From an uncultured Chloroflexota bacterium (GTDB taxonomy: Bacteria > Chloroflexota > Dehalococcoidia > CAUJGQ01), in the NCBI GenBank assembly GCA_937879875.1, contig CALFMN010000021.1, positions 65,249 through 129,248 of the forward strand: a stretch of 64,000 nt of DNA, read 5' to 3'. This document shows positions 11,758-33,090 of this stretch, piece after piece. Positions within the stretch are counted from its first letter, which is position 1. Each line of letters begins with the position of its first letter. A program made the translations under genes and the position numbers. The notes below the pieces were generated by a model, which searched no databases, was not told where the DNA came from, and was given only the letters and a program-made list of their open reading frames with translations.

Positions 11758-12234
11758 CTAGGCGGGGGCGAGGATATTCGTCAGGTGACCTTTGACGTGG
11801 CCGATCACCAGCATGTCGACGAGCTGGCCGGCGCCGACCGGAGCTTCGCCGAGGGGCGGGAACTGCGCCGTGCGAGCGAGCTGGTCGTCGCTGAAGGCGC
11901 GCAACTGCCCGAGCACGCCGGCTTTGCTGCTGCGCAGCAGATCAAGCGTCTCGGCCTTCGTGCAGTTGGCGAACTGCAGCGCGTGCTGCGCGTTGCCGGC
12001 ATTGATCATCTCGAAGGTAATCGGCGGCAGCGGCTGTGCGGTGGCGATGGCCTGGACCAATTCGAAGGTTGGCTGCACGCTGCTGGCGATGTGGTGCGCG
12101 GTGACGCCCACACTCCAGCTATCCGTTGGGTTCAGCGCGCCCCAGCGCGTGTCCGAACAAGCCGCGATCGCCGCGACCGCCTCGTCGATAGCCGCTTCCA
12201 GTTGACCCGCGAGCGCCTCCGCCTGAGTGCCCAT
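11758..12234 (-). CDS. DinB-like / maleylpyruvate-isomerase N-terminal-domain-like protein
   Basis: 158 aa from ATG at 12234. His-containing motif TAHHIASS and a four-helix-bundle-like composition. Family call is tentative. Confidence 0.5.
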   Translation of the reverse strand: MGTQAEALAGQLEAAIDEAVAAIAACSDTRWGALNPTDSWSVGVTAHHIASSVQPTFELVQAIATAQPLPPITFEMINAGNAQHALQFANCTKAETLDLLRSSKAGVLGQLRAFSDDQLARTAQFPPLGEAPVGAGQLVDMLVIGHVKGHLTNILAPA

Positions 12235-12385
12235 AGCCACGTCTCCTCCTCCGTCCCGCCGGCTGCATCGCCGGGCGAGGCCCACAATTTCACGTCGAAT
12301 CCAAAGCACCAGGACACCGCCGGGCATCTGTCGCTGGCTGACCTCCTTACATGACATGCGCCGCAGGCCGGCACCGCGCGGCGCG

Positions 12386-12850
12386 TTACGTCGATGCTTC
12401 GCCGGCCGCCCAGGGATCGGGGCCGGGATCGGCGCCCGCGGCGGCAAGGGCCAGGCGCGGCAGGTAGTGCTCCCAGCCCACGCTGTGGGCCTCACGCTGC
12501 GCGGCATCGAGGCCGCTGTGGCGCAGCCGCAGCAGCGTGCCGTCGCCGTCCGGCTCGAACGTCACCTCGACCGTGCTCGACCCCGGCGGCACGGCCTGAC
12601 CTTCGCCCTCCCAACCCCAGGTGAAGACGATGCGGCGTGGCGGCTCGACGGCGACGTACTCGCCGCGGGCGACGTCGCCGCCAGTCACGTTGACGCGGTA
12701 GATGCCGCCGGGGCGCGGATCGAGCTCGGCCTCGACGCCTTTCCAGCGGCGCAACTTCTCCGGATCGGTGAAGTAGCTGAAGACAATCTCTGGTCTGGCC
12801 GCGATACGCAACTCGCGTTCAACCGCGGCGTCGATACCGGGCAAGGTCAT
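12386..12850 (-). CDS. SRPBCC family protein (AHSA1/activator-of-Hsp90-ATPase-like)
   Basis: ...EIVFSYFTDPEKLRRW...RIVFTWGWEG...STVEVTFEP.GDGTLLRLRHSG...GWEHYL typical of the AHSA1 domain. Sits beside an ArsR gene, the usual partner. Confidence 0.8.
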   Translation of the reverse strand: MTLPGIDAAVERELRIAARPEIVFSYFTDPEKLRRWKGVEAELDPRPGGIYRVNVTGGDVARGEYVAVEPPRRIVFTWGWEGEGQAVPPGSSTVEVTFEPDGDGTLLRLRHSGLDAAQREAHSVGWEHYLPRLALAAAGADPGPDPWAAGEAST

Positions 12851-14225: not shown

Positions 14226-15791
14226 TCAACCGCGGCGCAGCGCCCGGCCCGGCAAGGCGCCGGTATGCTCGCCGCCATCCACGACGATCTGGCCGTTGAC
14301 GATCACCTGCTCGATGCCGATCGGGAACTGCTTCGGCTGCTCGATCGTGGCGGGCGATCGCACCGTGGCCGGGTCGAAGACGACCACATCTGCCTTGAAC
14401 CCGTCTTTCAGCAGGCCGCGGTCGCGCAGTCCCAGCGTCTGCGCCGGCAGCGAGGTCAGCTTGCGAATGCAGTCCGCCATGCCGAGAATGCCCTCTTCGC
14501 GCACCAGATCGCCCAGCATCGTCGGCGCGGCGCCGTAGGTGCGCGGGCTGACTTTGTCGCCGACCAGCAGCGCGTCGCTGCCGAGCATCGTGCTCGGATG
14601 CTCCAGAAACTTGCGCACGTTCACGGGGTTGCCAAACGTGCCGATCTGCACCAGGTTCAGGTCTTCATCGAGCAAGAGATCGCAGAGCGTGTCGATCAGG
14701 CTCTTGCCCAGCGTCTCCGCGATCTGCGGCAGGCTCCAGCCCTCGAAACGGCGGTACTGCGGCCGGCTGAAGTTGGCGGTGAGGTAGCTGTCGAGCCGCA
14801 GCCGCTGGAAGTTGGGGTCGGCCGCCATCTTCCGGCGCACGGCCTCGTCGCTGATCCGCTCCAGCAGCTTCGGCACGCCGCCGTCGTGCGTCCACTCGGG
14901 CAGCAGACTGACGAGGCGTGTGCTCGAATAGACGTAGGGATACACGTCGGCCGTCACCTGCTGGCCGCGAGCGGCGCGCGCGTCCACCAGTTCCAGCAGC
15001 TTGCGCCAGGCGCCGGGGAACGGCCAACCCGAGTTGAAGTGCGAGATGTGTACGGGAATGCCGCTGCGTGCGCCGATCTCCAGCGCCTCGGTGATCGGAT
15101 CGACGTGGCGGTCGCCCATGCCGAAGCGCACGTGGGTGACGTAGAGGCCGCCGAGCGCGTCCGCCTCTTTCGACAGCTCAACCAGCTCCTCGGTGCCGGC
15201 GTAGCTGCCGGGCGGGTAGGTGAGACCCGTCGAGATGCCGAAGGCGCCCTCTTCCATGCCCTGCCGGATCAGCGTGCGCTGCGTCTGCAGCTCGGCGCCG
15301 GTCGGCGCGCGGTCGTCCCAGCCCATCGCCGAGATGCGAATCGGCGAGTTGCCCATCACGTAGCAGACGTTGACCGCGACCTTGCCGTCGAAGTGTTCGA
15401 GATACTCGCCCACCGAACGGGAGCGCAGGCCGTCGGGCGGCCGGCCGTCCAGCCCGGCGTTGAGCGTGATGAAGTGCTGCAGATCCTCGCCCTTAAGGAT
15501 CGGCGCGTAGGAGTTGCCGTCCACGCCGATCAGCTCGGTGGTAATGCCCTGCCGCACTTTGGGCTCGTGGCGGGGCTCGCTGAGGATCACGTTGCCGCTG
15601 TGCGCGTGCATGTCGATGAAGCCGGGGCAGACGATGCGGCCGCGCGCGTCGATCGTGCGCTGCGCCGCGACGCGCGCGGTGTCGCCGCGCAGGAGGCGCA
15701 GCGCGTCGCCCGCGATCGCCACGTCGGCGCGCAGCCAGGGATTGCCGCTGCCGTCGTAGACCTGGCCGTTGCGGATCAGCACGTCGTACAT
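14226..15791 (-). CDS. N-acyl-D-amino-acid deacylase (D-aminoacylase) family amidohydrolase
   Basis: MYDVLIRNGQVYDGSG...ADVAI.GD.I..G....A...IDA.G..V.PGFIDMHAHS matches the D-aminoacylase N-terminus. ATG at 15791. Confidence 0.85.
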   Translation of the reverse strand: MYDVLIRNGQVYDGSGNPWLRADVAIAGDALRLLRGDTARVAAQRTIDARGRIVCPGFIDMHAHSGNVILSEPRHEPKVRQGITTELIGVDGNSYAPILKGEDLQHFITLNAGLDGRPPDGLRSRSVGEYLEHFDGKVAVNVCYVMGNSPIRISAMGWDDRAPTGAELQTQRTLIRQGMEEGAFGISTGLTYPPGSYAGTEELVELSKEADALGGLYVTHVRFGMGDRHVDPITEALEIGARSGIPVHISHFNSGWPFPGAWRKLLELVDARAARGQQVTADVYPYVYSSTRLVSLLPEWTHDGGVPKLLERISDEAVRRKMAADPNFQRLRLDSYLTANFSRPQYRRFEGWSLPQIAETLGKSLIDTLCDLLLDEDLNLVQIGTFGNPVNVRKFLEHPSTMLGSDALLVGDKVSPRTYGAAPTMLGDLVREEGILGMADCIRKLTSLPAQTLGLRDRGLLKDGFKADVVVFDPATVRSPATIEQPKQFPIGIEQVIVNGQIVVDGGEHTGALPGRALRRG

Positions 15792-15980
15792 CGCGAGCCC
15801 CCTCTGTCCCTGCATGGAATCTGCAGGAAAGTCCGGCAGCCGACCCGTGAGCGCCGTCCCCGCGGCATTCACGGCCTGCCTGAATCGGCTGTGGCCACGC
15901 TACCATGGCAGAGCCTGGCAGGAACGCAGCCCGCCATTACAGGGTAACGCGGCACCGGCAGAGCACCGAGGAGGCCGTCC

Positions 15981-16573
15981 ATGACGAGCGCCGTCGAGCA
16001 TCTGCTGGCGAGGGATGAGGCGCTGCGGGCGTGGGCGCGGGCCGTGATTCCCGGCGGCATGCAGGGCCACGGGAGCCACTGGGCGTGCTGCCGGACCTCG
16101 CCACCTATTCGAAGGCGATCGCCAACGGCTATCCGCTGGCAGCCGTGGCCGGTTCCGACCGGCTGCGCGAGGAGACGGCCGGCGTCTACGCTACCGGATC
16201 GTTCTGGTATGGCGCCGTGCCGATGGCCGCCGCGATCGCCACGATCGCGACGCTGCGCGACGAGCAGGGCATCGCCACGATGCAGCGCATGGGCACGCTG
16301 CTGCGCGATGGTCTCGCCAGACAGGCCGAGAGCCACGGGCTGATGATTCACCAGACCGGACCCGTGCAGATGCCGTTCCTCACCTTCGCCCGCGACCAGG
16401 CGTTCGAGCGGGCGAACGTCTTCACCGGCGAGGCGGCGCAGCGCGGCGTCTACCTGCACCCCTGGCACGACTGGTTTTTAAGCGCGGCGCATACGGAAGA
16501 CGACATCGGCCAGGCGTTGGAACGCACGGACGAGGCATTCGCGGTCGTGCGGCGCAAGTTCGGCGCGGAATAG
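15981..16573 (+). pseudogene. Remnant of a class-III (GSA-aminomutase-like) aminotransferase: N-terminal 30 aa fused out of frame to the C-terminal 175 aa (large internal deletion)
   Basis: Frame 1 reads MTSAVEHLLARDEALRAWARAVIPGGMQG (typical class-III N-terminus). A +1 frame then continues ...GVLPDLATYSKAIANGYPLAAVAG...FTGEAAQRGVYLHP (C-terminal domain). About 230 aa of PLP-binding core are missing. Confidence 0.55.
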
Positions 16574-17525: not shown

Positions 17526-17718
17526 TGGTGCCGGTGCGGGGCAGCGTGTGGGGAGCGCAGCCCATGGGGCACCGCCATGCCCGCCGGTGGCCGGCGCTGC
17601 GGCGCTGGTCAGGGACGGCGCGGGGACAGCGGCGGCGGGGGCGGGAGCGCTCCGCGTTGCGGGCGCGGCCCGGCGCCGGCGTGTCCCGAATCAACCGGCC
17701 AATCGCCGTGGTCAGCTA

Positions 17719-18257
17719 TTTGAGCTGGCGGACATATTCGGCGACGGCAGCGGCGAGACTTGCGGCGACCAGGCCGTCGGCGAAGGGCTGGCGGCGGCGT
17801 TCGGCCCCCAGCTATTCCTGGACCTGGCGCCGGCGCGTGACCAACGCGGCCAACTCACGCAGCGGCCTGGTGGGCAGCGGCCGGGGCACCAGCGTCGTGG
17901 TGGCGGCGAAGGGGCGAGCACGCGGGCATCGCCGCGGTCGGTCTTGCAGAGAATCCCCTGGCTTCTGGCGAAGGCGCGGGCCTGGCGGGGATTGACGACC
18001 AGCACCGGCAGAGCCGCTGCCTGCAGCGCCAGGGCACAGGCGGCCTCATAGGCACCCACCGCCTCCAACACGATGAGGCGCGGCCGCTGTGTGGCGAGCT
18101 GCGCGACGAGGGCGGCGATGCCGTCGGCGTCGTTGGCCAGGCGCTGCGGCGTGCCTTGCCGATGGACGGCGAGGTCGAGCTGCGCCTTGCTCACGTCGAT
18201 GCCCACAGCACAGGCAGCGGTAGCGGGCGCAGGGCCGGAGGTGGGTGTGCTGGTCAT
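17719..18257 (-). mobile_element. IS110-family transposase remnant (N-terminal DEDD domain; frameshifted, internal stop, C-terminal Transposase_20 domain missing)
   Basis: CAVGIDVSKAQLDLAV...LIVLEAVGAYEAACALALQAAALPVLVVNPRQARAFARSQGILCKTDRGDARVLA is the classic IS110 N-terminus. A -1 frame continues PRPLPTRPLRELAALVTRRRQVQE* and then ERRRQPFADGLVAASL...; similarity ends at about 17719. Confidence 0.7.
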
Positions 18258-18444
18258 CGCTGGGCCTCCTGTGCCCCGACCTTGTCGATGCGGGCTCGTG
18301 GATCCGGGCAACGGTCCGGGGTTGCTGAGGAGTCAGGGGCGCCGCCCAGGCTCATCCACGGGCTGGCGGCACCGAGGGCCGAACGGGCTGACGCGCCTGC
18401 CAGCTCCCACCCTGCGGGATGAGCAAGATACAGGGGCCGAACGG

Positions 18445-20664
18445 CTACAGCGGCAGGCCGACCGTTGCGGTATCGCGCTCGCCGATGCGCAGATCGTGGT
18501 TGGGCGCCATGCCCTCCGGGAAGAGGTTCGTCTCCAGCAGCGAGCCGCAGGCCGGACACGACCACTCGTACAGCTCCACCGCCGGATCGTGTCGCGGCCG
18601 GATATGCACGCCCAGCTCGGCCAGGCGCCCGGATGCCTCGGAGACGCGCATTTTGCAGCCGTCACGCCAGTTGCGCCCCGCGCCGGCCAGCTCGGCGCCG
18701 CAGGAACCGCAGGCGATCGCGCCGTCGCCGCCCAGCGCCAGCGCGGGGTGGAAGCCGTCCTGGCCGGAGACGTCCCGGCTCGGCTCGCCGCCGATGCGCC
18801 GGCGGCGAATCTCCAGCCGCTCGCGCCGCGTCGCCGCCTCGTCCACCGAGACGCCGTCCGCACCGAGCACCACGCCGTGGGCGACGCGGGCCACATCCGG
18901 TGTCACGTAGGCGGCGATCACGTCGGCCAGCACCCGCCGCGGGTCGCGCGTGATCGGGTCGCCGATGCCGGCGCCGCCGCCGGTGATCTGGTGGAAGACA
19001 TCGCCCTTTGACAGCGGCACTCCGGCGATGTGATTGAGCAGCGTCGTCTCGCCGCCGCCCATCTCCGCTACGCCCTGCGGCAGCCCCTGGCCGTTCGCCA
19101 GCCGGTTACGCACGTTGGTGCCGCGCACCACGTTGAAGAAGTTCGTGCCGCCGGGGTAGCCGCCCATCAGCGCCCGCGTGGGCACGGACGACATCGCGTT
19201 CTCCAGCGTGCCGGTCAGCGCCTCGGTGCGCCACGGCGTCCAGGCGAAGTCCATGCCCTGGCCGCCCCGGTTGTAGCCCGGCCCGCCCGAGCCTTTGTTC
19301 AGCCGGCGCCAGAGGTAGAGCATCGGGTAGTTGCCCTCGTTAATCTCCACGTCCGGAATGCCGTTGCCGAGCTGCACTTCGTATGAGGAGACATCGAGGC
19401 CGTCGATCGTGCTCTGCGCACCCATGCCGCCGGAGCCGCAGTCCATCACCGCGAAGGCGGTATACGTTCCGAACTGCGACTGCCCCACCCACGAATTGCC
19501 CGGCCACGACATGACGCCGAGTGAGAACGTGCGCTGGCGCAGCTCGGGCTCCAGCGCGATGCCCAGCGCCTTGGCGAACGCTTCGGCCGCGGCGCGCGCC
19601 GCCTTCGAGGCGCCCTCCATGTGCCCGCAGGAGACAGGCGCGGGCAGCACGGGGTGCAGCACCGTGCCCGGCGCGGGCAGTTGCATGCGCACGGGTCGGA
19701 AGAGGCCGGCGTTGGCGGGCATGTCGTAGCAGAGGGCAAAGAGCAGGATGCTGCCGACCACGCCCAGCATCGCGCCGTAGCCCGCGTTGATGAAGCCGTC
19801 GCTCTGCGCGTCGGTCTCCGTGAAGTCGAGCACGAGATCGGAGCCCTTGATGATCAGACGCAGGCCGATCTTGTAGAGTTGGTCGGCGCCGTGGCCGTCG
19901 TACTCAGCCCAGTCGTACGTCTCGTAGACGCCGTCCGGCAGCGCTTCGATGCGGCCGCGCACCACCTGCTCGCAGAGGTTCTTGTTGACCTCAACGTACT
20001 TTTCGTATTCCTCCAGCCCGTAGACGTCGAGCAGATCGGCCACGCGCATCTGCGCCACGTTGAGCGCGGCCACCAGCGAGCGCACGTCGTTGATCACGAT
20101 CGGCAGCCGCACGTTATGCACGAGCAGCCGCACCATGTCGGGAATGAAGGTGCCGCGGCTGACGATGCGGATCGGCGGCAGCCGCAGCGCCTCGCCGTAG
20201 CAGTCCCAGGCCACCGGCGCCCAGCCGCCGGGCGACATGCCGCCCACGTCGAGGATGTGTGCGTTGGAGAAGGCCCAGCCGACGAGCTGCTCTTTCCAGA
20301 AGAGCGGTGAAACCACGGCCACATCGCCCTGGTGAATGGCGCCGCCGTCGTAGGGGTCGTTGAGAATGAAGGCGTCGCCGGGGTGCACGTCGTCGCCGTA
20401 CTGCTTCACGACGGCGCGCACGCCTTCGAGCGAGCTGCCCATATGCGCGATCACGTAGCCTGAGAAGCCGATGTGCTCGACCTTGCGGTCGAAGATCGCG
20501 CAGCAGAAGTCTTTGGCCTCGGAGAGGATGGGCGAGCCGGAGGTGCGGATCAGCGTCGTCGCCATCTCCAGGCTGATATTGCGCAGCCGGTTCTGGATCA
20601 CCTCGGCGATGATCGGGTCGTACTCAAGCTGCTCTTGCTCGCTGCGAACCGCGGTGCTGGCCAT
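18445..20664 (-). CDS. Hydantoinase B/oxoprolinase (HyuB/acetone-carboxylase-alpha-like) with C-terminal Cys4 zinc-ribbon extension
   Basis: About 580-aa HyuB core (…ILNDPYDGG..H..D..VV.P.F…). An extra roughly 150 aa carries CGSCG...(46 aa)...CPACG, resembling acetone-carboxylase gamma subunits. ATG at 20664 (MASTAV). Confidence 0.85.
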   Translation of the reverse strand: MASTAVRSEQEQLEYDPIIAEVIQNRLRNISLEMATTLIRTSGSPILSEAKDFCCAIFDRKVEHIGFSGYVIAHMGSSLEGVRAVVKQYGDDVHPGDAFILNDPYDGGAIHQGDVAVVSPLFWKEQLVGWAFSNAHILDVGGMSPGGWAPVAWDCYGEALRLPPIRIVSRGTFIPDMVRLLVHNVRLPIVINDVRSLVAALNVAQMRVADLLDVYGLEEYEKYVEVNKNLCEQVVRGRIEALPDGVYETYDWAEYDGHGADQLYKIGLRLIIKGSDLVLDFTETDAQSDGFINAGYGAMLGVVGSILLFALCYDMPANAGLFRPVRMQLPAPGTVLHPVLPAPVSCGHMEGASKAARAAAEAFAKALGIALEPELRQRTFSLGVMSWPGNSWVGQSQFGTYTAFAVMDCGSGGMGAQSTIDGLDVSSYEVQLGNGIPDVEINEGNYPMLYLWRRLNKGSGGPGYNRGGQGMDFAWTPWRTEALTGTLENAMSSVPTRALMGGYPGGTNFFNVVRGTNVRNRLANGQGLPQGVAEMGGGETTLLNHIAGVPLSKGDVFHQITGGGAGIGDPITRDPRRVLADVIAAYVTPDVARVAHGVVLGADGVSVDEAATRRERLEIRRRRIGGEPSRDVSGQDGFHPALALGGDGAIACGSCGAELAGAGRNWRDGCKMRVSEASGRLAELGVHIRPRHDPAVELYEWSCPACGSLLETNLFPEGMAPNHDLRIGERDTATVGLPL

Positions 20665-20742
20665 GTTACCCTCCTGGGGGTTAGGTGACAGTAGGTTTCT
20701 GGTCCAGCCGCTCCCTGTAACCAGTAACCAGTAACCTGTCAC

Positions 20743-22815
20743 CTAAACGGTGAGCCGGTAGTTGCGGAACTCGTCCACGCTGAGTTCCGCACCCGTGGGC
20801 ACGTAGATCGTCGTATCCACATCTTCCACGATCGCCGGGCCTTGCAGGCTCATGACCGGCGCGAAGGCGGCGCCGCGATACACGGCCACGCGCTCGCGCC
20901 GGCCGAGGTCGGGCAGCAGCGCCTCGCGCGAGCCGTGCCAGGCTCTGTCCGCCGAGCCGCCGTCGCGCGCGAAGCGGCGCAGCGCCGGCTTGTTGACGCG
21001 GCCGATGCCCGTTACGCGGGCGTTGAGCATGATCGGCGGGAACCCTTCCCAGGCCGTGCCCTTGCCGTACAGCCGCTCGTAGCTGTCTTTGAACTCGCTG
21101 GCGATCTGCTCGCGGTGCGCCTCGGTGAGCTGCGCCGCGGGCAGCGGCACGGTCAGTTCGAAGATTTGGCCGGCGAACTTGAGATCGCCCTCGTAGCGCA
21201 GCTCGATCTGGTCGGGCGCGAAGTTGCGCTGCGCGAGCACGCTGCGCGCCTGCTCGGCCAGGCTGCCGATCACGGCGTTCACCGGCTCCAGCGGCGCCGC
21301 CGGCACGATCCAGTTCACGGTCTGCACGAAGGAGCGCACGCCGTCCGCCCACAGCAGGCCGTAGGCGGAGAAGACGGCCGCATCGTCCGGGATAATGATC
21401 TCCTTGATCCCCATCGTGCGGCAGATCTGCGCCATGAACAGGCCGCTGGCGCCGCCGAACGAAACCATGACGAAGCGGCGCGGGTCGTAGCCCTTCTCGA
21501 TCGTGGCCGAGCGCACCGCGTTCGCCATCGTGTCGGTCACGATCTGGTAGAGGCCGCTGGCCGCCGCGTCTTCTGTCCAGCCCAGCGGCTCGGCGATGCG
21601 CGTACGCACGGCGCTCGCCGCCGCCGCGCGGTCCAGCTTGATCGCGCCGCCGAGGAAGTAGTCGGGGTCGATCAGGCCGAGCGCCACGGCCACATCGGTT
21701 ACGGTCGGCTCGGCGCCGCCGCGCCCGTAGCAGGCGGGGCCGGGCACGGCGCCGGCCGACTGCGGCCCCACGCGTGGGGCGCCGCGCGAATCGAGCCAGC
21801 AGACCGAGCCGCCGCCCGCGCCGATCGCGGAGATGTCCACCATCGAGATGCCGGTGTCGAACTTGCCGAGCTGCACGCGGTGCGCCAGCGTGAGCTCGCC
21901 GTCTTTGATCAGCGCCGTGTCGAACGAGGTGCCGCCCATGTCGGCGGTGATCGCGTCTTGAATGCCCAGCGCCTGCGTCAGCGCCCGTGCGCCAAGCGCA
22001 CCGCCGACGGGGCCGGAGTTGATGAGCTGGATCGGCTGCTCCTGCGCCTCGGCAGTGGAGAGCAGGCCGCCGATCGACTGCATCATCGACAGCTCGACGC
22101 CGAGGCCGCGCTGCTTCAGCTCACGTTCGAGTTTGTCGACGTAGGTCTCGATCCCCTTCGAGGCGTAGCTGTTGAAAACCGTCGTCACCATGCGCTCGTA
22201 CTCGCGCGCCACGGGGAAGACGCGTGAGGAGATGGAAACGAACAGGTCCGGATACAGCTCGCCCGCGATCTCGCGTACGCGCTGCTCGTGCGCCGAGTTG
22301 GCGAACGACCAGAGGAAGCAGACGGCCAGCGCCTCGCAGCCGCCCTCCACGAGCCGCCGGATCGCCTCGCGCACCTGCTCCTCGTGCAGCGGCACCACGA
22401 CCTGGCCGAAGGAATCGACCCGCTCGTCCAGCTCAGCGATGTCCTCGCGGGCGACGATGTCGGGCGGCGGTGTCTGCGTCCAGAGGTCCATGTCGTTGGT
22501 GCGGGCCGAGCGGGCGATGCGCAGCGTATCGCGGAAGCCGCGCGTGGTGATCAGGCCGACGCGCCGGCCGCGCAGCTCGGCGATGGCGTTGGTGACGATC
22601 GTGGTGCCGTTGATGAACAGCTCGCAGCCGCGCAGGATGCCGCCCAGATCAAGGTCGGCCTCACGGGCCAGCGTTTCGAGGGCGTCGAAGATGCCGCGGG
22701 GATAGTCGTCGGGTGTGGTGGGCGCCTTGGCGCGGCGGACGTGGCCGTCTTCGTCGATGGACACCACATCCGTGAACGTCCCGCCGATATCGACGCCGAT
22801 GTGGTAGCGAGGCAT
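20743..22815 (-). CDS. Hydantoinase A/oxoprolinase (HyuA/acetone-carboxylase-beta-like)
   Basis: MPRYHIGVDIGGTFTDVV N-terminal ATPase motif. 690 aa. Its stop abuts the hyuB start. Confidence 0.9.
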   Translation of the reverse strand: MPRYHIGVDIGGTFTDVVSIDEDGHVRRAKAPTTPDDYPRGIFDALETLAREADLDLGGILRGCELFINGTTIVTNAIAELRGRRVGLITTRGFRDTLRIARSARTNDMDLWTQTPPPDIVAREDIAELDERVDSFGQVVVPLHEEQVREAIRRLVEGGCEALAVCFLWSFANSAHEQRVREIAGELYPDLFVSISSRVFPVAREYERMVTTVFNSYASKGIETYVDKLERELKQRGLGVELSMMQSIGGLLSTAEAQEQPIQLINSGPVGGALGARALTQALGIQDAITADMGGTSFDTALIKDGELTLAHRVQLGKFDTGISMVDISAIGAGGGSVCWLDSRGAPRVGPQSAGAVPGPACYGRGGAEPTVTDVAVALGLIDPDYFLGGAIKLDRAAAASAVRTRIAEPLGWTEDAAASGLYQIVTDTMANAVRSATIEKGYDPRRFVMVSFGGASGLFMAQICRTMGIKEIIIPDDAAVFSAYGLLWADGVRSFVQTVNWIVPAAPLEPVNAVIGSLAEQARSVLAQRNFAPDQIELRYEGDLKFAGQIFELTVPLPAAQLTEAHREQIASEFKDSYERLYGKGTAWEGFPPIMLNARVTGIGRVNKPALRRFARDGGSADRAWHGSREALLPDLGRRERVAVYRGAAFAPVMSLQGPAIVEDVDTTIYVPTGAELSVDEFRNYRLTV

Positions 22816-23032
22816 GCGCCCTCCCTGTCACCGCAATCGTCGCGGCCGATCCTCAGCCGGACCACGAGAGCCGGCTCTTACTCCAGGCCGCGGCAGCAAT
22901 CCCGGCGATTGTGCACCGTGCCCTCTGAAGTATCAACAACCCGGAATGGCGATCCTGCCGCGGTTCAACGCGCTGCGCGGTGCGCTTGAAAGCGATCCGG
23001 CGCGAGCGAGAACGGAATGCGCCGCTTCGGTG

Positions 23033-23608
23033 CTACATCCCCTGGCCGGTCGTCTCCTGCAACTCGCGCGTGAGCCAGATCTCGCCGAGGTGCTGGTTGC
23101 CGTGCGCGATCACGGTCTGGCCGATCGCCTGTAGGATCGGGATCTCACCGAAAGGCATGACTTTGACGATACGGTTCATCTCGTCGGCGGTGAGGCCGGC
23201 GTAATAGGGTGCGGTGCTTTCCCAGACGGCACGGGCGTAGGGCAGGAACTCGGCCGGCGGCGGCACGGTCATGGCGTGCGCCTCGTCGGGCTCCATGCCG
23301 GTGCCCTGTGCCGCTTTCGGCAGGTGCCACTGCTGATCGAGTCCCTGCTCAAGCCAGACGGTGTTCTTGCGCTGCAACACGAAGTTGACGACGTTGTCCT
23401 CCGTGCGAATCCAGTGCCAGGCGGTGAAGCCGATGTGGTTGGTAGTGGGACCGAGGCGACGCTGCCACTGCTCCAGCGAAAGATCCTCCAGCGCCTTCGC
23501 GTAGTTTTCGTGCAGTTGGTCGATGAAGTGACGCAGATAGTCACGGATCTCCACGGTCGTGCTCCTGCCGGCCGGCGGCGTCAAGGCGGCGCCGGCCGCG
23601 CCCCGCAT
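23033..23608 (-). CDS. DinB_2/YfiT-like protein (paralog of 7216..7750)
   Basis: Shared motifs with 7216..7750. True start is probably an internal GTG near 23559 (VEIRDYLRHF...). Confidence 0.65.
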   Translation of the reverse strand: MRGAAGAALTPPAGRSTTVEIRDYLRHFIDQLHENYAKALEDLSLEQWQRRLGPTTNHIGFTAWHWIRTEDNVVNFVLQRKNTVWLEQGLDQQWHLPKAAQGTGMEPDEAHAMTVPPPAEFLPYARAVWESTAPYYAGLTADEMNRIVKVMPFGEIPILQAIGQTVIAHGNQHLGEIWLTRELQETTGQGM

Positions 23609-23616
23609 TCTGCCGT

Positions 23617-24657
23617 CTACTTGCCCGCCGGCGCAACCGGCCGTGCCGGCGCGATCGACTCGCGCACCACCAGCTCGGAGCGCTGAACCAACGTCTGCTC
23701 GCGCGCCTCGCCTGCTGCCACGGCGAAGAACAGTTCCGCAGCGCGGCGGCCGAATTCGCTGTAGTCGAGCCGGATCACGCTGATCGGCGGTTCGAAGGCG
23801 TTGGCCCAGAGCGAATCGCCGTGCGCGAGCAGCGAGACATCGCGCGGCATGCGCAGACCGGCCTCGCGCACGGCGAGCAGCATGCCAGGCGTGAAGCGGT
23901 GCATGCCGGCGATCAGTGCCGTCGGCCGGTCGGGCCGGGCCAGCATCTCGCTGGTAAAGGTACGTGCCTCGTCCAGATTCTGCGCGGCGTACAGTAGTGA
24001 CTCATCGACCGAGACGCCGGCTGCGGCGTGCGCTTTGCGGTAGTCGCGCATGCGCACGGACATGCTGGCCACCGGTTGGGCCGGCTCGCTGCCGTAGGAG
24101 CGGATGATCAGGCCGATGCGCCGGTGGCCCAGATCGAACAGCAGCCGGAAGGCCGAGCGCGCGGCCTCCTCTTCGTCGACGACGATCTCCGGCTCCATGC
24201 CGCTGGGCGAGCGCTGACCCATCACGATCACCGGGATGCCCGTGGCCCGTGCCGCGGCGATCTGCTCCTGATAGGGGCCGAGCGGATGGATCAGGATGCC
24301 GTCGACGCGCTGGCCGTAGAGCCGGTCGAGGTGCGTGCCCTGGGCGCTGAAGGAGCCGGCCGCGTCGCAGACGAACAGGCTGCGGCCGCGGGCCGCGGCG
24401 ACTTGCTCGATGCCGTGCAGGATGTCGGTGAAGGTCGGATTGGTGAGATCGGGCACGACCACGCCGATCGTGCCGGTGCGGGCGAGGCGCAGGCTGCGCG
24501 CGGCGGCGTTCGGCCGGTAGCCGAGCTGCGCGATCGCCTCTTCGACCAGGCGGCGCAGGCCGGGGTGAACCGAGCGGTCGCCATTGACGACGCGCGAGAC
24601 CGTCGCGATGGAGACGTTGGCCGCGCGGCCGACGTCGCGGATGGTAGCCACGGGCAC
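23617..24657 (-). CDS. LacI family transcriptional regulator
   Basis: N-terminus ATIRDVGRAANVSIATVSRVVNG (LacI HTH) followed by a periplasmic-binding-protein-like sugar-binding domain. Confidence 0.85.
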   Translation of the reverse strand: MPVATIRDVGRAANVSIATVSRVVNGDRSVHPGLRRLVEEAIAQLGYRPNAAARSLRLARTGTIGVVVPDLTNPTFTDILHGIEQVAAARGRSLFVCDAAGSFSAQGTHLDRLYGQRVDGILIHPLGPYQEQIAAARATGIPVIVMGQRSPSGMEPEIVVDEEEAARSAFRLLFDLGHRRIGLIIRSYGSEPAQPVASMSVRMRDYRKAHAAAGVSVDESLLYAAQNLDEARTFTSEMLARPDRPTALIAGMHRFTPGMLLAVREAGLRMPRDVSLLAHGDSLWANAFEPPISVIRLDYSEFGRRAAELFFAVAAGEAREQTLVQRSELVVRESIAPARPVAPAGK

Positions 24658-24879
24658 CCTCGCGCCGGGCGACTTGCGCGAAAAGGTTTACCGGCCGCCG
24701 AAGTATCCCGCCGCGTCGCAACGATGTCAAGACGGCTGAAGGGTGAAGGGTGAGAGGTGAAGCGTGAACGTGCTGCATGGTTGGCCCGTACTCTGGTGTA
24801 CGACTCGCCGCTCGCCTGCACCCTGCACCCTCAACCCTGGCCCTGGCGTGTAGAATGCAGGCGCTCGCGGCGGGCCTAG

Positions 24880-25085
24880 CCCTGGTTTCGCACACGAAAC
24901 CTGTCCCTTTCCGACGCGGAAAGGGTTTTGGCTGCGGAGGACTCCCGACGCCAATCCTGCCTGCGCGGCAACCGAGGAGTCGCCGCGCGCCCGCAGGCCT
25001 GATCACGCGATCAGCGGTCACATGATCGAAAGGTGGAAAATCCTCCCAACGAGAAAACCCTTCCCGTGTCGGGAAGGGAGACGCG
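24880..25085. repeat. Degenerate copy of family-1 MITE (hairpin gtccctttccgacgcggaaaggg...cccttcccgtgtcgggaaggga)
   Basis: Internal hairpin modules recognisable. Outer CACCTAACCCTG termini absent. Confidence 0.5.
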
Positions 25086-25134
25086 GCGCTTTTTAGATCG
25101 CCGCTCCACGGCGATGAGGGCGCGGCGGGGTTAG

Positions 25135-25905
25135 GTGACGGTGCAGGTGGACGAGTTCGATCTGAAGGGCGAGGTTGCGCTGGTGACGGGCGGCAACGGC
25201 GGCATCGGCCGCGGTATCGCCGTCGGGCTGGCCCGGGCGGGCGCCGATATTGTGATCGCGGCGCGCGACGAGGCGAAGACGGCGGACGCCCGCGCCGAGG
25301 TCGAGGCGCTGGGCCGTCGCTGCGTCGGTGTGCGCTGCGACGTGAGCCGCCGCGCCGAGCTGCAGGCCGCGGTACAGATCGCGCGCGATGCGCTGGGCAA
25401 GCTCAGCATCGTCGTGGCGAACGCGGGCATCGCCGTGCGCGGGGCGCCGCAGTCGCTGGCGGAAGAAGATTGGCTGCGGGTGATCGGCACGAACCTGAAC
25501 GGCGTCTTCTTCGCCGCGCAGACGGCGCATCCGGCGCTTGTGGCGAACGGCGGCGGCAAGGTGATCACGATCGGCTCCGAGTACTCATTGTTCGGCAGCC
25601 CGACCGTGCCGTCGTATTCGGCCAGCAAAGGCGGCGTGGTGCAACTGACGAAGTCGCTGGCGGTGGCCTGGGCGCGGGACAACATCCAGGTCAACTGCAT
25701 CATCCCCGGCTGGGTGCGCACCGACCTGACCGCACCGGTCATGGAAGACAAAGAGAGCTACGAGCGCATCGTCGGCCGCACGCCGGCGCGCCGCTTCGCC
25801 GAGCCCGAAGAGCTGGCCGGCGCCGCCGTCTTCCTCGCCTCGCGCGCCTCGAATTTTGTGACCGGCCAGAGCCTGGTGGTGGACGGCGGCTACTCGATCG
25901 CCTGA
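25135..25905 (+). CDS. SDR family oxidoreductase
   Basis: ALVTGGNGGIGRGIA...NAG...S..Y.ASK. GTG start at 25135. Confidence 0.85.
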   Translation: MTVQVDEFDLKGEVALVTGGNGGIGRGIAVGLARAGADIVIAARDEAKTADARAEVEALGRRCVGVRCDVSRRAELQAAVQIARDALGKLSIVVANAGIAVRGAPQSLAEEDWLRVIGTNLNGVFFAAQTAHPALVANGGGKVITIGSEYSLFGSPTVPSYSASKGGVVQLTKSLAVAWARDNIQVNCIIPGWVRTDLTAPVMEDKESYERIVGRTPARRFAEPEELAGAAVFLASRASNFVTGQSLVVDGGYSIA

Positions 25906-25990: not shown

Positions 25991-28807
25991 ATGGCCGAAC
26001 TGCCGACTGGCACGCTCACCTTTCTCTTCACCGACGTGGAGGGCAGCACGCGCCTGTGGGAGCGGCACCCGCAGGCGATGCGCCGGATCATGGCCCGTCA
26101 CGACGCGCTGCTGACCCAATGCTTCGAACAACACAAAGGTGTCGTCGTGCGCCCGCGTGGGGAGGGCGACTCGCTGTTCGCCGTCTTCATGCGGGCGAGC
26201 GATGCCGTCACCGCGGCACTCGAAGGGCAGCGCGTGCTGCTTACAGAGGATTGGGGCGCGATCGGGCCGCTGCGGGTGCGCATGGGCTTGCACACGGGCG
26301 AGGCGGACCTGCGCGCGGGGGACTACTACGGCAGCGCCGTGAATCGCTGCGCCCGCATCCGCGCCGCCGGCCACGGCGGCCAGGTGCTGCTCTCCGAGGC
26401 GACGGCGAAGCTCGTGCGCGAAACGCTGCCGGACGGCGCAACGCTGCTGGACCTCGGCCGGCACCGGCTGCGCGACCTGAGCGAGCCAGAGCAACTGTTC
26501 CAACTCATTGCCGCAGACCTCCCCGGCACGTTTCCACCGCTGAAGACGTTGGAGAGCCGGCCCAACAACCTGCCGCTGCAGCTCACCAGCTTCGTCGGTC
26601 GCGGGCGCGAGCTGGCCGAGCTTGCAAGCCTGCTGAAAACGGCGCGTTTGGTGACGCTCACTGGCCCCGGCGGCACCGGCAAAACGCGGTTGGCGCTGCA
26701 CGTCGCCGCTGGGCTGCTGGACGGCTTCTCCGATGGCGTGTTCTTTGTGGACCTGGCGTCGCTGCAGGATCCGGCGCTCGTGCCCGCGGCGGTCGCCCAG
26801 GCCCTCGGTGTCCAGGGCCTGCCGGAGGTGTCGGCCCGCGAGAGCGTGCTGCGCTTCCTCCGGGACAAACAGGTGCTGCTCGTGCTGGACAACTACGAGC
26901 ACCTGTTGGCAGCGGCTGAATTCGCAGCGGCGCTGCTTCAGGCGGCGCCGGCGGTGCGCCTCCTCGTGACGAGCCGCGCGCCGCTGCGGGTGACCGGCGA
27001 GCGGGAATATGCGGTTGCGCCCTTGCTGGCGCCGCAGGAGCGCGTGCACTCGGCAGCGGAGCTGGCGCAGAATCCGGCAGTGCAACTCTTCGTGCAGCGG
27101 GCACAGGCCGTGCGAGCCGACTTCGCGCTGAGCGATGCAAACGCCTCGACCGTGGCGGCCACCTGCGCACGGCTGGACGGCTTGCCGCTGGCGCTCGAAC
27201 TGGCGGCGGCGCGGATGCGTGCGTTGCCAGTGGCAGCGCTGCTGGCGCGATTGGAGCAGCGCTTGCCGATCTTGACGGGCGGCGCACGGGACGTGCCGGC
27301 GCGCCAGCAGACGTTGCGGGACGCGATCGCCTGGAGCTACGCCCTGCTTGAGCCGGCGGAGCAGCGCTTGTTCCGACGGGTTGGCGTGTTTGCCGGCGGC
27401 TGTACGCTGGCGTTGGCGGAGGCCGTCTGCACCGCCGACGGCGACCTCGGCCTCGACGTGCTGGACGGCGTCGGTTCGCTGGTGGAGAAGAGCCTGCTGC
27501 GCGAAGTCGACGGCCAGGCGGGAGAGCCCCGCTACCGCATGTTGGAGACCATCCGCGAGTTTGCCCTCGGGGAGCTTGAGGCCCATGGCGAAGCGGAGGC
27601 TGTACGGCGGCACCTGGCGGTGCAGGTGTTACAGCTGGTCCGACAGGCCGCCGTGGCGGGTGCCCAGGAGCGCCTGGACGTCGACCTGGATAATGCCCGG
27701 ACCGTGCTGGGGTGGTGCGTCGAACACATGGAGTTGGCGGTGGGGGTGCGATTGTTCTGGGCGTTGCGCTGGTATCTGCACTACCGTGGACTCGGAAAGG
27801 AGCTCAACCTGTGGCGCCAGCGCCTCCTCGCCCTGCCGGACGCCTCGGCGCCGAGCGTTTCTCGGGCGCGGCTGCTTGGAATCACGCTGTTTGACCCGCT
27901 CTCCCTCGCCGAACAGGAGCGCGCGGTGCTTGAGCTCGAGGAAGCCATTGGCCTCAGTCGTGCCCTGGGCGACGCGTCCTGCCTCGCCGATGCGCTCCAA
28001 CACCTTGCGGTGCTGCGGATGAGTCAGGGCCGGTTTGACGCGCTGGTGCCGCCGGCAGAAGAAGCGCTCCCGCTGTATCTCGCAGCGGGAGCGCCACAGG
28101 CCGCTGCCTCTATGCAGCTCTTCCTGGTTCATGCCGCGCTTTCCCGCGGCGATATCGCCACCGCAGAAGCGCTGGTCGCGGCCAATCGGGCGCTCGAGGG
28201 CACGAAACGCTCGTCGCCCGGCCTATCAGCGGAGTCCGCGCTCGCAGAGGCGCACGGCGACCATGGGCGGGCGCGGGTGTTCCTGGAGGAGTCGGCTCGA
28301 GCGGCGGCCGCGTTACAGGGGGAGCAGAGCCCTGACAGACTGGCCCGCCTCGCCATGCTCGTGCAGGTCACCCTGCGCCAAGGGGACACGCGGGGCGCGG
28401 TGGCACGCTGCACCGAGAGTCTCGCCGTGGAACGCCGTGTGGGGCCCTCGCGCTTTCTGGCGGCGGTCTTGACGGTGCTCGCCCAGGCGGCGGAGCGCTG
28501 TGGCCGGCTGCCCGCCAGCGCACGGCTGTTGGCCGCCGTCGACGGGCAACGGCGAACGTTCGCCGTGGAGGTGCCGGGCGTGCAGGAGGCGCAGCAGGCG
28601 GCGGTGGCGCGGGTGCGGGTCGCGCTGGGCGAGGCGGCGTTCGCCGAAGCGTGGGCGGTGGGCGAGGCGCTTGCTCCGGAGGAAGCCATCGAGCTTGGCC
28701 TGGCTGTTGCCGGGGAGCTGGCGGCCGGCCCAGCGGCCCTCATCCTCACCCCCGTCCCCTCTCCTTCTCCCAATCCTGGAGAGAAGGAAAGGGGCGATCC
28801 GGCGTGA
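25991..28807 (+). CDS. Signal-transduction protein: class III adenylate/guanylate cyclase domain + STAND (NB-ARC/AAA) NTPase + TPR-like repeats
   Basis: N-terminus LTFLFTDVEGSTRLWE...GDS.FAVF...R.G.HTGE (CHD cyclase). Walker A GPGGTGKTRLAL. hhhhDN Walker B (LLVLDNYEH). Helical repeat C-terminus. The last about 20 codons are encoded by a family-2 repeat. Confidence 0.85.
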   Translation: MAELPTGTLTFLFTDVEGSTRLWERHPQAMRRIMARHDALLTQCFEQHKGVVVRPRGEGDSLFAVFMRASDAVTAALEGQRVLLTEDWGAIGPLRVRMGLHTGEADLRAGDYYGSAVNRCARIRAAGHGGQVLLSEATAKLVRETLPDGATLLDLGRHRLRDLSEPEQLFQLIAADLPGTFPPLKTLESRPNNLPLQLTSFVGRGRELAELASLLKTARLVTLTGPGGTGKTRLALHVAAGLLDGFSDGVFFVDLASLQDPALVPAAVAQALGVQGLPEVSARESVLRFLRDKQVLLVLDNYEHLLAAAEFAAALLQAAPAVRLLVTSRAPLRVTGEREYAVAPLLAPQERVHSAAELAQNPAVQLFVQRAQAVRADFALSDANASTVAATCARLDGLPLALELAAARMRALPVAALLARLEQRLPILTGGARDVPARQQTLRDAIAWSYALLEPAEQRLFRRVGVFAGGCTLALAEAVCTADGDLGLDVLDGVGSLVEKSLLREVDGQAGEPRYRMLETIREFALGELEAHGEAEAVRRHLAVQVLQLVRQAAVAGAQERLDVDLDNARTVLGWCVEHMELAVGVRLFWALRWYLHYRGLGKELNLWRQRLLALPDASAPSVSRARLLGITLFDPLSLAEQERAVLELEEAIGLSRALGDASCLADALQHLAVLRMSQGRFDALVPPAEEALPLYLAAGAPQAAASMQLFLVHAALSRGDIATAEALVAANRALEGTKRSSPGLSAESALAEAHGDHGRARVFLEESARAAAALQGEQSPDRLARLAMLVQVTLRQGDTRGAVARCTESLAVERRVGPSRFLAAVLTVLAQAAERCGRLPASARLLAAVDGQRRTFAVEVPGVQEAQQAAVARVRVALGEAAFAEAWAVGEALAPEEAIELGLAVAGELAAGPAALILTPVPSPSPNPGEKERGDPA
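28742..28805. repeat. Family-2 repeat, solo hairpin arm (cccgtcccctctccttctcccaatcctggagagaaggaaaggggcgatcc)
   Basis: Overlaps the 3' end of CDS 25991..28807. Confidence 0.6.
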
Positions 28808-32026: not shown

Positions 32027-33090
32027 TCACGGCGCGATTGCGGGATAGAGATGCTGCAAGCGAATGCGGGCAGCGGCGGTGGTGAAGCGCCAGCGGATGG
32101 CGGTGGTGCCGGCGTTGCGCTCGGCCTCCCAGGCGGCGACCTCAGCGGTGAGCGTGTCGGCATCGGCGATGCGCCGGTCCAGGCACTGGCGGCTGAGGAT
32201 GCTGCACTCAATCTCGGCCATGTTCAGCCACGACCCGTGCGGCGGCGTGTGATGCAGCTCCAGCTTATCCAGCAGGCGCGTGGCCTCGGCCGGTGGGAAG
32301 GCCTGGTACAGCGCCGCCCCACTATGCGTGTTCAGGTTGTCCAGCACCAGCACGAGGCGCTCGGCCTCGGGGTAGTGGACCTCGACCAGGTCTTTGATGA
32401 CGTGGGCGCAGTCGACCGCCGTGCGCCGCGCGGTGACCGTCACGTGCCGCCAACCGGCAAGCGGCTCACAGACCACAAAGAGGTTGGCCACGCCGTTGCG
32501 CACGTCCTCATCGTCCTCGCGGGCGGGCTGGCCCGGCTGGACCGGGCGTGGGGGCTGGACCGCGCCCACCAGGTGCTTGCTGGTCTCGTCCAGACAGACC
32601 TGCGGACGCCGGGGATCCTGGGGCCGGTGATAGACATCCAGCACGTCCTCCAGCTGGCAGACCAAGGCGGCACTGCCCTGCGGCGGCAGGCACCAGCGCG
32701 TGTCTGCCAGGGCTTCAGCACGTTGTTTTGCGCGTGCGCCGTACGGTTTCGTACGCGATCGCCTCGACGAGGTTGAGTTCGACCAGGCGCTGGGCGACCA
32801 GGCGCAAGGTCCAGCCCCTCCTCCACGAAGCGGCGGCGCACGCGCTCGACGGTGTCGCTGCTCACACCGGCGGTGGCGGCGATCGCGGCGTCGAAGCGGC
32901 CGGACTGCCCGGGCGGCGCATCGGCCAGCAGCAGGATGCGGGCGTGCTGGAGCGTGCGGGCGGCATGCGTGCCGCTGTGCAGGAACTGCTGCAGATGCTC
33001 CCGCTCAGCAGAGGTGAGGGTGACACGATAGCGTTTCGTTCGCATGCGCCCAGCATGCCAGCGCCTTACCATAACGGGCAAGGCGGCCGT
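32027..33090 (-). mobile_element. IS630-family insertion sequence (copy 1); transposase broken into N-terminal HTH and C-terminal DDE ORFs by frameshifts
   Basis: N-terminus MRTKRYRVTLTSAEREHLQQF...VSSDTVERVRRRFVEEGLD (IS630 HTH). C-terminus ...DETSKHL...LVLVLDNLNTHS...HHTPPHGSWLNMAEIECSIL...LYP (DDE domain, ORF 32027..32665). At least two frame changes in between. Confidence 0.75.

Follow-up and report, generated by a model that had tools for sequence, protein, structure and literature searches.

A two-gene cluster, hyuA–hyuB, in the genome of an uncultured Chloroflexota bacterium encodes a HyuB protein whose C-terminus (about 123 residues) is, as judged from sequence profiles and structure prediction, a Cys4 domain homologous to the gamma subunit of acetone and acetophenone carboxylases. 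The cluster lies on a 64,000-nucleotide stretch of contig CALFMN010000021.1 (assembly GCA_937879875.1; positions 65,249 to 129,248 of the forward strand); this whole stretch, with a G+C content of about 69%, is referred to here as the window. The gamma subunit has previously been described only for acetone and acetophenone carboxylases, and it is found here at the HyuB C-terminus of an uncharacterised subfamily. According to database sequences, the fusion is the mark of a large and widespread clade (Actinomycetota, Bacillota, Proteobacteria and haloarchaea) and not a peculiarity of the locus, and the window locus is an ordinary member of this clade. Judged by its genes, the predicted enzyme is a mosaic, in which a hydantoinase/lactamase (Hyd)-like layout, subunit lengths and cores are combined with a carboxylase-like gamma, gene order and post-core helix. 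We read it as a hydrolase-branch enzyme with a retained gamma that would catalyze the ring-opening hydrolysis of a polar cyclic amide of the lactam, hydantoin or ureide type, and give this reading a probability of roughly 0.45.

Weidenweber et al. (2017; PMC5214803) distinguished three types of gene cluster in the family, hydAB, acxABC and apcABCDE, with the hydrolases (hydAB) being devoid of gamma and the carboxylases (acxABC and apcABCDE) possessing it. In that classification, gamma was stated to be absent from any Hyd complex, was deemed not essential to the integrity of the core and was placed far from the active sites, and its absence from hydrolases was used to argue that it is dispensable for carbonyl phosphorylation. 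The same literature goes against a statement in the preliminary description of this DNA that some lactamases are accompanied by a gamma subunit, since gamma is reported absent from every hydantoinase/lactamase-type complex (PMC5214803). Our literature searches found no paper describing a HyuB–gamma fusion clade, which is not proof that none exists.

The four genes lacI, dinB_2, hyuA and hyuB are co-directional on the minus strand, as the preliminary description had them, and the Pfam identities of all four products agree with these names. Three independent metagenome contigs, all from one organism or near-identical ones, share this gene order, and the 739-aa HyuB is identical in all three. The parts of the hyuA–hyuB cluster are as follows.

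22815..20743, minus strand: hyuA, ATP-binding ASKHA-fold subunit, 690 aa (Pfam Hydant_A_N, Hydantoinase_A and Hydant_A_C)
20665..20742, minus strand: hyuA–hyuB spacer, 78 bp, with an inverted repeat and three GGTTACT repeats
18817..20664, minus strand: hyuB core, residues 1–616, Hydantoinase_B metal-site subunit (Pfam PF02538)
18445..18816, minus strand: fused gamma-like Zn-ribbon domain, residues 617–739 and the stop codon (PF08882, family profile, AlphaFold2)
18711..18709 (C652), 18702..18700 (C655), 18558..18556 (C703) and 18549..18547 (C706), minus strand: Cys codons of the gamma domain

The open frame of hyuB runs from 20742 to 18445 on the minus strand with GTG 20742 as its first codon. 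However, the true start is most likely ATG 20664, giving a protein of 739 aa, because this codon is preceded by a GGAGG ribosome-binding site and because public data hold a 739-aa protein identical to the window HyuB; the 78-bp spacer between hyuA and hyuB follows from this assignment. HyuA matched Hydant_A_N, Hydantoinase_A and Hydant_A_C with E values of 1e-46, 2e-87 and 4e-17, respectively, and contains the sequences DIGGTFTD, DMGGT and GAVPGP, in agreement with the P1, P2 and adenosine motifs described for the family (PMC8453981). The HyuB core matched Hydantoinase_B (PF02538) with an E value of 4e-117, and its D52, H111, D114 and H136 are invariant in 28 aligned homologs. In an alignment with the caprolactamase subunit CapB, the metal-site residues of HyuB fall on the CapB ligands Asp41, His99 and Asp102 (PMC8453981), and the site matches His150/Asp153/His175 of acetone carboxylase (Acx; PMC5543143) by position, without alignment. 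With the ASKHA subunit motifs in HyuA and a Hydantoinase_B metal site encoded beside hyuA, the two proteins have the features of the hydantoinase/oxoprolinase–ketone carboxylase superfamily. The AlphaFold2 model of full-length HyuB had a predicted local distance difference test score (pLDDT) of 86 and a predicted template modelling score of 0.88.

We assigned the HyuB tail to the gamma subunit because PF08882 scored above threshold, because a family profile ranked gamma chains first, and because the AlphaFold model of the tail matched gamma chains only. In Pfam, Acetone_carb_G (PF08882) gave 26.5 bits against a gathering score of 21. The extension, which had been put at about 150 residues, spans about 123 residues (617–739) past the end of CapB and about 170 past the Pfam core match, making the earlier figure a fair one, and the pattern CGSCG...CPACG noted previously was located in the motifs ACGSCG (residues 652/655) and SCPACG (residues 703/706). 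C652, C655, E700, C703, P704 and C706 are invariant in 28 full-length homologs sharing 39–81% identity. When the last 164 residues of HyuB were searched against the PDB as a single sequence with phmmer, the small Zn subunit of acetophenone carboxylase (Apc; 5L9W chain C) was found at an E value of 0.008 and Acx-gamma at 1.8. A profile built from 23 such domains was more decisive: the top three of 177,635 PDB sequences were Acx-gamma (E = 2e-8 and 3.5e-8) and the Apc small subunit (4e-7), and the fourth-ranked match stood at 0.009. The Cys pairs of the family profile fall on the C-x-C and CPEC of Acx-gamma, at the positions of Cys74/76/124/127, which are its Zn ligands (PMC5543143), and in the single-sequence alignment those of HyuB fall on CHDC and CPGC of the Apc small subunit, at Cys22/25/75/78, likewise Zn ligands (PMC5214803). 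By analogy, C652, C655, C703 and C706 of the predicted gamma-like site would bind Zn.

The predicted structure agrees with the profile. The C-terminal domain has a pLDDT above 90 inside the full-length model, and a Foldseek search with this model matched the core to Acx-alpha, N-methylhydantoinase (NMHase), Apc and CapB, and the tail separately to the Acx-gamma and Apc small-subunit chains. Modelled alone, the domain had a pLDDT of 90, and its only PDB fold matches of probability 1.0 were Acx-gamma and Apc small-subunit chains (template modelling (TM) score of about 0.5), followed by matches with E values of about 0.7. Taken together, the sequence profile, the conserved Cys4 and the predicted fold bear out the proposal in the preliminary description that the C-terminal extension is a fused gamma subunit. 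The possibility raised there, that the extension might be shared by ordinary HyuB homologs and have no similarity to gamma, proved right in its first part, as hundreds of homologs with ordinary annotations possess the extension, but wrong in its second, as the similarity to gamma is present.

The single-sequence scores in Pfam and phmmer are weak, so that the tail might be an unrelated, generic zinc ribbon, and unfused hyuB and gamma genes with a 4-bp overlap do exist, so that a one-base error could mimic a fusion and the long protein might be an assembly or frameshift artefact joining hyuB to a separate small gene. Both explanations are highly improbable. The three gamma chains are separated from the next profile match by a clear gap, the fold search returned gamma chains only, the linker and the domain were modelled with confidence, the identical 739-aa protein came from three independent metagenome assemblies, and the fusion is kept in the 120 best homologs and in 80 genomes of several phyla. 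We take these conservation data to rule out both explanations.

The distribution of the fusion was examined in the 120 best database homologs of HyuB, reaching down to 40% identity, and in a scan of one genome per species, which gave 220 relatives, of which 80 loci were kept for neighbourhood counts. The 120 homologs are 606–750 aa long, with the great majority being about 715–750 aa; four are shorter, one of which is labelled partial by its source. PF02538 and PF08882 are both precomputed for most of them, and their names are merely 'N-methylhydantoinase B' or 'hydantoinase B/oxoprolinase family protein'. A HyuB homolog was detected in all of the 80 loci; the match reached at least residue 700 in 78 and was cut by the contig end in the other two. 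A separate query with the C-terminal part matched 56 loci, and hyuA was adjacent in 75. These loci span Thermoleophilia/Solirubrobacterales, Nocardia, Nocardioides, Mycobacterium, Bacillus, Neobacillus, Peribacillus, Paenibacillus, Aneurinibacillus, and alpha- and gammaproteobacteria, and the best species-representative match to the window HyuB is a metagenome-assembled genome of Solirubrobacterales (64% identity). Plasmid records contain fused HyuB–gamma in Rhodococcus and the haloarchaeon Natrinema, and an unfused hyuA–hyuB (650 aa)–gamma (93 aa) cluster with a 4-bp overlap on plasmid NZ_CP099998 of Natronosalvus halobius, whose 93-aa gene is named 'acetone carboxylase subunit gamma' by PGAP. 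The C-terminal profile, searched against 1.84 billion representative proteins, detected 846 clusters at 50% identity, many of which are fragments of fused proteins.

Based on the biochemistry of the family, hyuA and hyuB would encode a two-polypeptide, ATP-dependent carbonyl-activating enzyme of this superfamily, with gamma attached covalently to the C-terminus of HyuB. HyuA, with its ASKHA fold, would bind ATP and phosphorylate a carbonyl substrate in its enol or iminol form, and the phosphorylated intermediate would then travel along a channel inside the enzyme and be converted at the Asp/His/Asp/His metal site of HyuB. The gamma-like domain, for which the homology and the Cys4 set were observed directly, may hold a structural Zn through its four Cys residues and pack on the HyuB core in the manner of the free gamma of acetone carboxylase, which contacts mostly the HyuB-like subunit (PMC5543143); the fusion would make this contact permanent. 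The layout corresponds to a fusion of the last two genes in an acxA–acxB–acxC-type order. The role of gamma itself was described as unclear by Mus et al. and in later work, and its Zn is considered structural (PMC5543143 and PMC10865871).

The preliminary description took the fused domain to argue for a carboxylase or lactam-hydrolase function. However, the presence of gamma does not by itself settle the choice between these two chemistries: its role in Acx and Apc is described as structural or unclear and it is far from the active sites (PMC5214803, PMC5543143 and PMC10865871), and the cores are closer to those of hydrolases. The PDB bit scores of HyuA were 411 with CapA, 410 with NMHase, 336 with Apc-alpha and 305 with Acx-beta, with Apc-alpha' below Acx-beta, and those of the HyuB family profile were 324 with CapB, 290 with NMHase, 245 with Apc and 230 with Acx. 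Acx is thus the lowest of the four solved homologs for HyuB and the lowest catalytic partner for HyuA. NCBIfam models gave the same order (CapA 578 versus ApcC 357 bits, and CapB 238 versus ApcD 139), with all scores far below the equivalog cut-offs (1000 for both CapA and CapB). By the description of PMC5214803, the adjacent two-gene layout and the lengths of HyuA (690 aa) and of the HyuB core (about 616 aa) fit the Hyd type, whereas the Hyd branch is defined as having no gamma and HyuB has a fused one. We used the bit-score ranking in place of a tree for hydrolase/carboxylase kinship. A tree meant to place the clade between hydrolases and carboxylases was discarded as uninformative on function; it was unrooted and had four solved outgroups, and the three groups met at one node.

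The genomic context of the closest relatives (58–71% identity) is devoid of CoA ligases and offers instead PucR-type regulators, a class-III aminotransferase or a Liv-type importer of the ABC class; such neighbours suit a polar substrate yielding an amino acid. A metagenome scan for close relatives, made with very specific patterns, gave 3 loci, and for the 58–81% identity subclade of the window enzyme this neighbourhood rests on about nine loci. The LacI-type regulator encoded beside hyuAB in the window suggests a polar effector. We lean narrowly toward hydrolysis over ketone carboxylation for the window enzyme because its subclade is found without CoA genes and beside PucR, aminotransferase or Liv importer genes, and because of this LacI regulator.

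Several observations weigh against hydrolysis. All characterised gamma-containing enzymes are carboxylases, and all characterised hydrolases are without gamma (PMC5214803). The post-core helix EIRRxRxG aligns with residues 681–689 of Acx-alpha (QIRKDRLA), and the CapB and NMHase chains stop at most 3 and at most 11 residues past the aligned region, respectively. More distant members of the clade (36–53% identity) are encoded near AMP-dependent CoA ligases in 43 of the 80 loci, with the two being co-directional and at most 1 kb apart in 26, and thiolases, CoA transferases and Zn-dependent alcohol dehydrogenases (Zn-ADHs) are frequent there as well, fitting the logic of a ketone carboxylase pathway. 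The identity to any characterised enzyme is just 22–26% in structure-based alignments, and because of this the similarity ranking is weak evidence on chemistry. At the window locus itself, we found no conserved substrate-specific neighbour, the region downstream of hyuB is rearranged (IS110 and aminotransferase fragments), and control of hyuAB by LacI comes with no operator that stands above chance.

Some of these observations also belong to the case for a tentative alternative, to which we give somewhat less credence, namely that the window enzyme is a minimal, Acx-like, two-polypeptide ketone carboxylase. HyuA would then phosphorylate an enolised ketone and bicarbonate, the HyuB metal site would join them into a beta-keto acid, and the fused gamma would reflect carboxylase kinship. 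Gamma is known just from Acx and Apc (PMC5214803), the order hyuA, hyuB, gamma is that of acxABC, and the post-core helix is shared with Acx-alpha, whereas CapB stops there. The neighbours across the 80 loci include an AMP-binding CoA ligase in 43 (within 8 kb), an APH-like kinase in 24, an enoyl-CoA hydratase in 20, an acyl-CoA dehydrogenase in 18, an SCPx-type thiolase in 15, a CoA-transferase III in 14 and a Zn-ADH in 10. In Neobacillus, the gene order is Zn-ADH, a sigma-54 activator with a MimR_N domain, an MFS protein, HyuA, HyuB–gamma, a cyclase, a CoA ligase and a 3-hydroxyacyl-CoA dehydrogenase, and on the Rhodococcus plasmid the genes after those of HyuA and HyuB–gamma encode a CoA transferase and then an enoyl-CoA hydratase. 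The acetophenone route of Aromatoleum consists of an alcohol dehydrogenase, Apc and a benzoylacetate-CoA ligase. The Neobacillus and Rhodococcus neighbourhoods mirror it, resembling a route from alcohol through ketone and beta-keto acid to a CoA ester, and by this analogy they favour carboxylation for those members. Genes for a thiamine pyrophosphate-dependent, 2-oxoacid/acetoin-dehydrogenase-like complex occur within a few kb in two hosts that are very distant from each other, Neobacillus bataviensis (fused) and Natronosalvus halobius (unfused, on the plasmid), which hints at a link to small-ketone metabolism.

For the window enzyme, however, the context does not extend to such a route: no CoA ligase, CoA transferase or thiolase is encoded near hyuAB, the nearest in the window being about 33 kb away, nor is one found among the called genes near hyuAB in four relatives with 58–71% identity. 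Both cores score 75–100 bits higher against hydrolases, the subunit lengths are Hyd-like, and the second HyuA paralog and the epsilon subunit that Apc needs are absent from the locus. In addition, a CoA-rich context does not discriminate between the two chemistries, as it also surrounds the Hyd-type 2-oxoindoleacetyl-CoA gamma-lactamase of indoleacetate degradation (PMC5214803). Hydrolysis therefore keeps its narrow preference at this locus. A broader form of the carboxylase proposal, in which the members of the clade would be minimal two-polypeptide, biotin-independent ketone carboxylases feeding beta-keto acids to adjacent CoA ligases and thiolases, and the window enzyme one of them recruited under a LacI-type regulator, appears unlikely.

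The lacI and dinB_2 genes and the region between dinB_2 and hyuA contain the following features.

24702..24730, minus strand: promoter-like site before lacI, TTGACA-17-GATACT, 10/12 consensus matches (consensus match only)
24657..23617, minus strand: lacI, LacI-family transcriptional regulator, 346 aa (Pfam LacI HTH and Peripla_BP_1/3/4)
23608..23033, minus strand: dinB_2, DinB_2/mycothiol-S-transferase (MST)-like protein, 191 aa, or 173 aa from a later start (Pfam)
23032..22816, minus strand: pre-hyuA intergenic region, 217 bp, with a promoter-like site and short palindromes
22936..22908, minus strand: promoter-like site in the 217-bp gap, sigma-70-like TTGATA-17-CACAAT
22911..22897, minus strand: palindrome CAATCGCCGGGATTG, candidate operator overlapping the -10 element
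22879..22866, minus strand: palindrome AAGAGCCGGCTCTC, candidate operator farther downstream

LacI has the domains of its regulator family in Pfam, an N-terminal LacI helix-turn-helix (HTH) and a periplasmic-binding-protein-like effector domain, and its best NCBIfam models (RbsR, PurR, CytR and UriR) all scored far below their cut-offs. DinB_2 scored 46 bits in Pfam against a cut-off of 24.8, with MST at 27 bits; the NCBIfam equivalog MST_Rv0443 reached 64.5 against 170, leaving the general DinB_2 fold family as the only assignment. The dinB_2 gene starts 8 nt after the lacI stop codon, and because of this spacing the two genes are probably co-transcribed. We regard the pair as a transcription unit that is separate from hyuAB and specific to the lineage. 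The 217-bp gap had been called a likely promoter region, and the sigma-70-like site at 22936..22908 agrees with this; the consensus scan found two such sites, with 0.4 expected. The expectation of a palindromic LacI operator in 22816–23032 fared less well: the region has short palindromes, but their number (3 observed versus 1.3 expected, with 15% of shuffles reaching 3) is within chance. No motif of at least 11 nt is shared between 22816–23032 and 24658–25134, and much of the region upstream of lacI is a degenerate repeat element. Judging from adjacency, LacI probably represses hyuAB from the gap promoter.

All four genes might instead belong to one pathway, in which DinB_2 would be a thiol-dependent (mycothiol) transferase or isomerase acting on the substrate or product of HyuAB. 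They are adjacent and co-directional, DinB_2 matches the MST profile weakly, and the arrangement is identical on the three independent contigs, which come from the same or a near-identical organism. We consider such a pathway improbable, as tblastn detected homologs of neither LacI nor DinB_2 within 8 kb of hyuB–gamma in any of the 80 related loci, PucR-type regulators being found instead in close relatives, and the promoter-bearing gap lies between dinB_2 and hyuA. DinB_2 paralogs are common in the genome, with a second one at 11758..12507, 11 kb away, and the MST equivalog score falls short of its cut-off. Given the absence from the 80 loci, the 8-nt spacing to lacI, the gap before hyuA and the second paralog, DinB_2 is probably a passenger in the lacI–dinB unit and not part of the HyuAB pathway. 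The preliminary description, which placed DinB_2 inside the cluster, was right in that it is a co-directional neighbour; its functional membership did not hold up, and it is better read as the second gene of the lacI–dinB unit.

The hyuA–hyuB spacer (20665–20742) has at its two ends the 10-bp arms of a perfect inverted repeat, TAGGTGACAG / CTGTCACCTA, and contains GGTTACT three times; the hairpin of its RNA has a predicted energy of -36.4 kcal/mol (z = -1.9). The two genes adjoin or overlap each other in relatives (0–15 bp between them), and because of this the spacer looks like a small insertion between the cistrons. One arm, CACCTAACCC, resembles the terminal repeat of a miniature inverted-repeat transposable element (MITE)-like element of the window. 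Its two 221-bp copies lie at 3604–3824 and 48407–48627; both end in inverted repeats of 14 bp that match perfectly (GGCACCTAACCCTG ... CAGGGTTAGGTGCC) and enclose two 21-nt hairpins (CCCTTCCCG-NNN-CGGGAAGGG), and the hairpin pattern was matched 6 times against an expectation of 0.02. A third copy, longer and degenerate, at about 24868–25139, fills most of the intergenic region between lacI and a short-chain dehydrogenase/reductase (SDR) gene and extends at its right end over the GTG codon at 25135 with which the SDR open reading frame starts.

Just downstream of hyuB, an N-terminal fragment of an IS110-family DEDD transposase is encoded at 17712–18311 (minus strand), and a class-III aminotransferase fragment at 16031–16573 (plus strand) covers only positions 248–376 of the 403 in the profile. 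Because the region is rearranged, as these remnants indicate, the downstream neighbours of hyuB are poor guides to its function. The aminotransferase fragment was considered as an ortholog of the aminotransferase beside hyuAB in close relatives and rejected, the match being weak and just 49 residues long. About 2.6 kb beyond hyuB, past the insertion sequence remnants, lies a gene for a D-aminoacylase-like Amidohydro_3 protein of 548 aa (14226–15872, minus strand); Amidohydro_3 homologs occur near hyuB–gamma in only 7 of the 80 related loci. On the other side, downstream of the SDR gene that is divergent from lacI, 25991–28807 (plus strand) encodes a 938-aa signalling protein with an adenylate/guanylate cyclase, a STAND/NB-ARC-type NTPase and a C-terminal HTH. 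Two overlapping open reading frames at 32440–33081 and 32027–32665 (minus strand) have translations that look by eye like a transposase, with an HTH at the N-terminus and a DDE-type domain at the C-terminus, possibly split by a frameshift.

As a variation on a known enzyme family, the clade is of modest interest. A large group with hydrolase-like cores that always carries gamma, usually fused and sometimes as a separate gene, blurs the hydrolase/carboxylase rule of the published classification. With gamma in cis, truncation or Cys mutants need only one construct, which makes this a clean system for asking what gamma does. Should its members prove to be ketone carboxylases, they would be a further group of compact CO2-fixing enzymes that work without biotin; should they prove to be lactam hydrolases, the range of ATP-dependent lactamases relevant to nylon-monomer chemistry would grow. 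As a lesson for annotation, PF08882 beside or inside HyuB does not by itself mean 'acetone carboxylase'.

Among known systems, acetone carboxylase AcxABC of Xanthobacter autotrophicus (PDB 5M45, 5SVB and 5SVC) has the same HyuA-like, HyuB-like and gamma modules in the identical gene order. The enzyme carboxylates acetone in an ATP-dependent reaction in which ATP yields AMP and 2 Pi. The gamma of Acx binds Zn at a Cys4 site, and most of its contacts are with the HyuB-like subunit (PMC5543143). The C-terminal profile of the clade matches residues 68–143 of Acx-gamma, including both Cys pairs, and the His/Asp/His metal ligands of the core and the post-core helix are present in both. In contrast to AcxABC, gamma is fused in the window HyuB and is without the N-terminal part of about 65 residues found in Acx-gamma; the first Cys pair is CxxC in the window and CxC in Acx-gamma; and the HyuB core has about 616 aa versus 776, with 22% identity, both window cores being closer to hydrolases. 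Acetophenone carboxylase Apc of Aromatoleum aromaticum (PDB 5L9W) provides the best single-sequence match, its 129-aa small Zn subunit (chain C; E = 0.008), which shares the CxxC...CxxC arrangement, the lack of a long N-terminal extension and the fold (TM score of 0.53–0.57). The interface motif (D)ERVDSFG of HyuA also resembles R/KERiDsxG of Apc-alpha (PMC5214803). However, Apc has a second HyuA paralog (alpha') and epsilon in a five-gene apcABCDE cluster, whereas the window has two genes with one hyuA, and the NCBIfam scores were 139 of 1500 for ApcD, 357 of 1500 for ApcC and 16.5 of 250 for ApcB, with ApcA also far below its cut-off.

Caprolactamase CapAB (PDB 6YRA), NMHase (7HK5/9H03), OplAB and HyuAB supply the best sequence matches for both subunits. 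CapAB and the other ATP-dependent lactamases and hydantoinases share the two-gene layout, the Hyd-like lengths and the HyuA ATP motifs with the window enzyme, and the metal ligands correspond to Asp41, His99 and Asp102 of CapB (PMC8453981). They differ in that gamma is absent from CapAB, NMHase, OplAB and HyuAB, both as a subunit and as a domain (PMC5214803); CapB, with 581 aa, stops at most 3 residues from the start of the extension, the identity is about 26%, and the equivalog scores were 578 and 238 versus 1000. The nearest unfused counterpart of the complete architecture is the cluster of Natronosalvus halobius, in which a 650-aa, Hyd-length HyuB is followed by the 93-aa gamma, the two together covering 93% of the window HyuB at about 30% identity; it differs in being archaeal and in having two genes with a 4-bp overlap, and is likewise uncharacterised.

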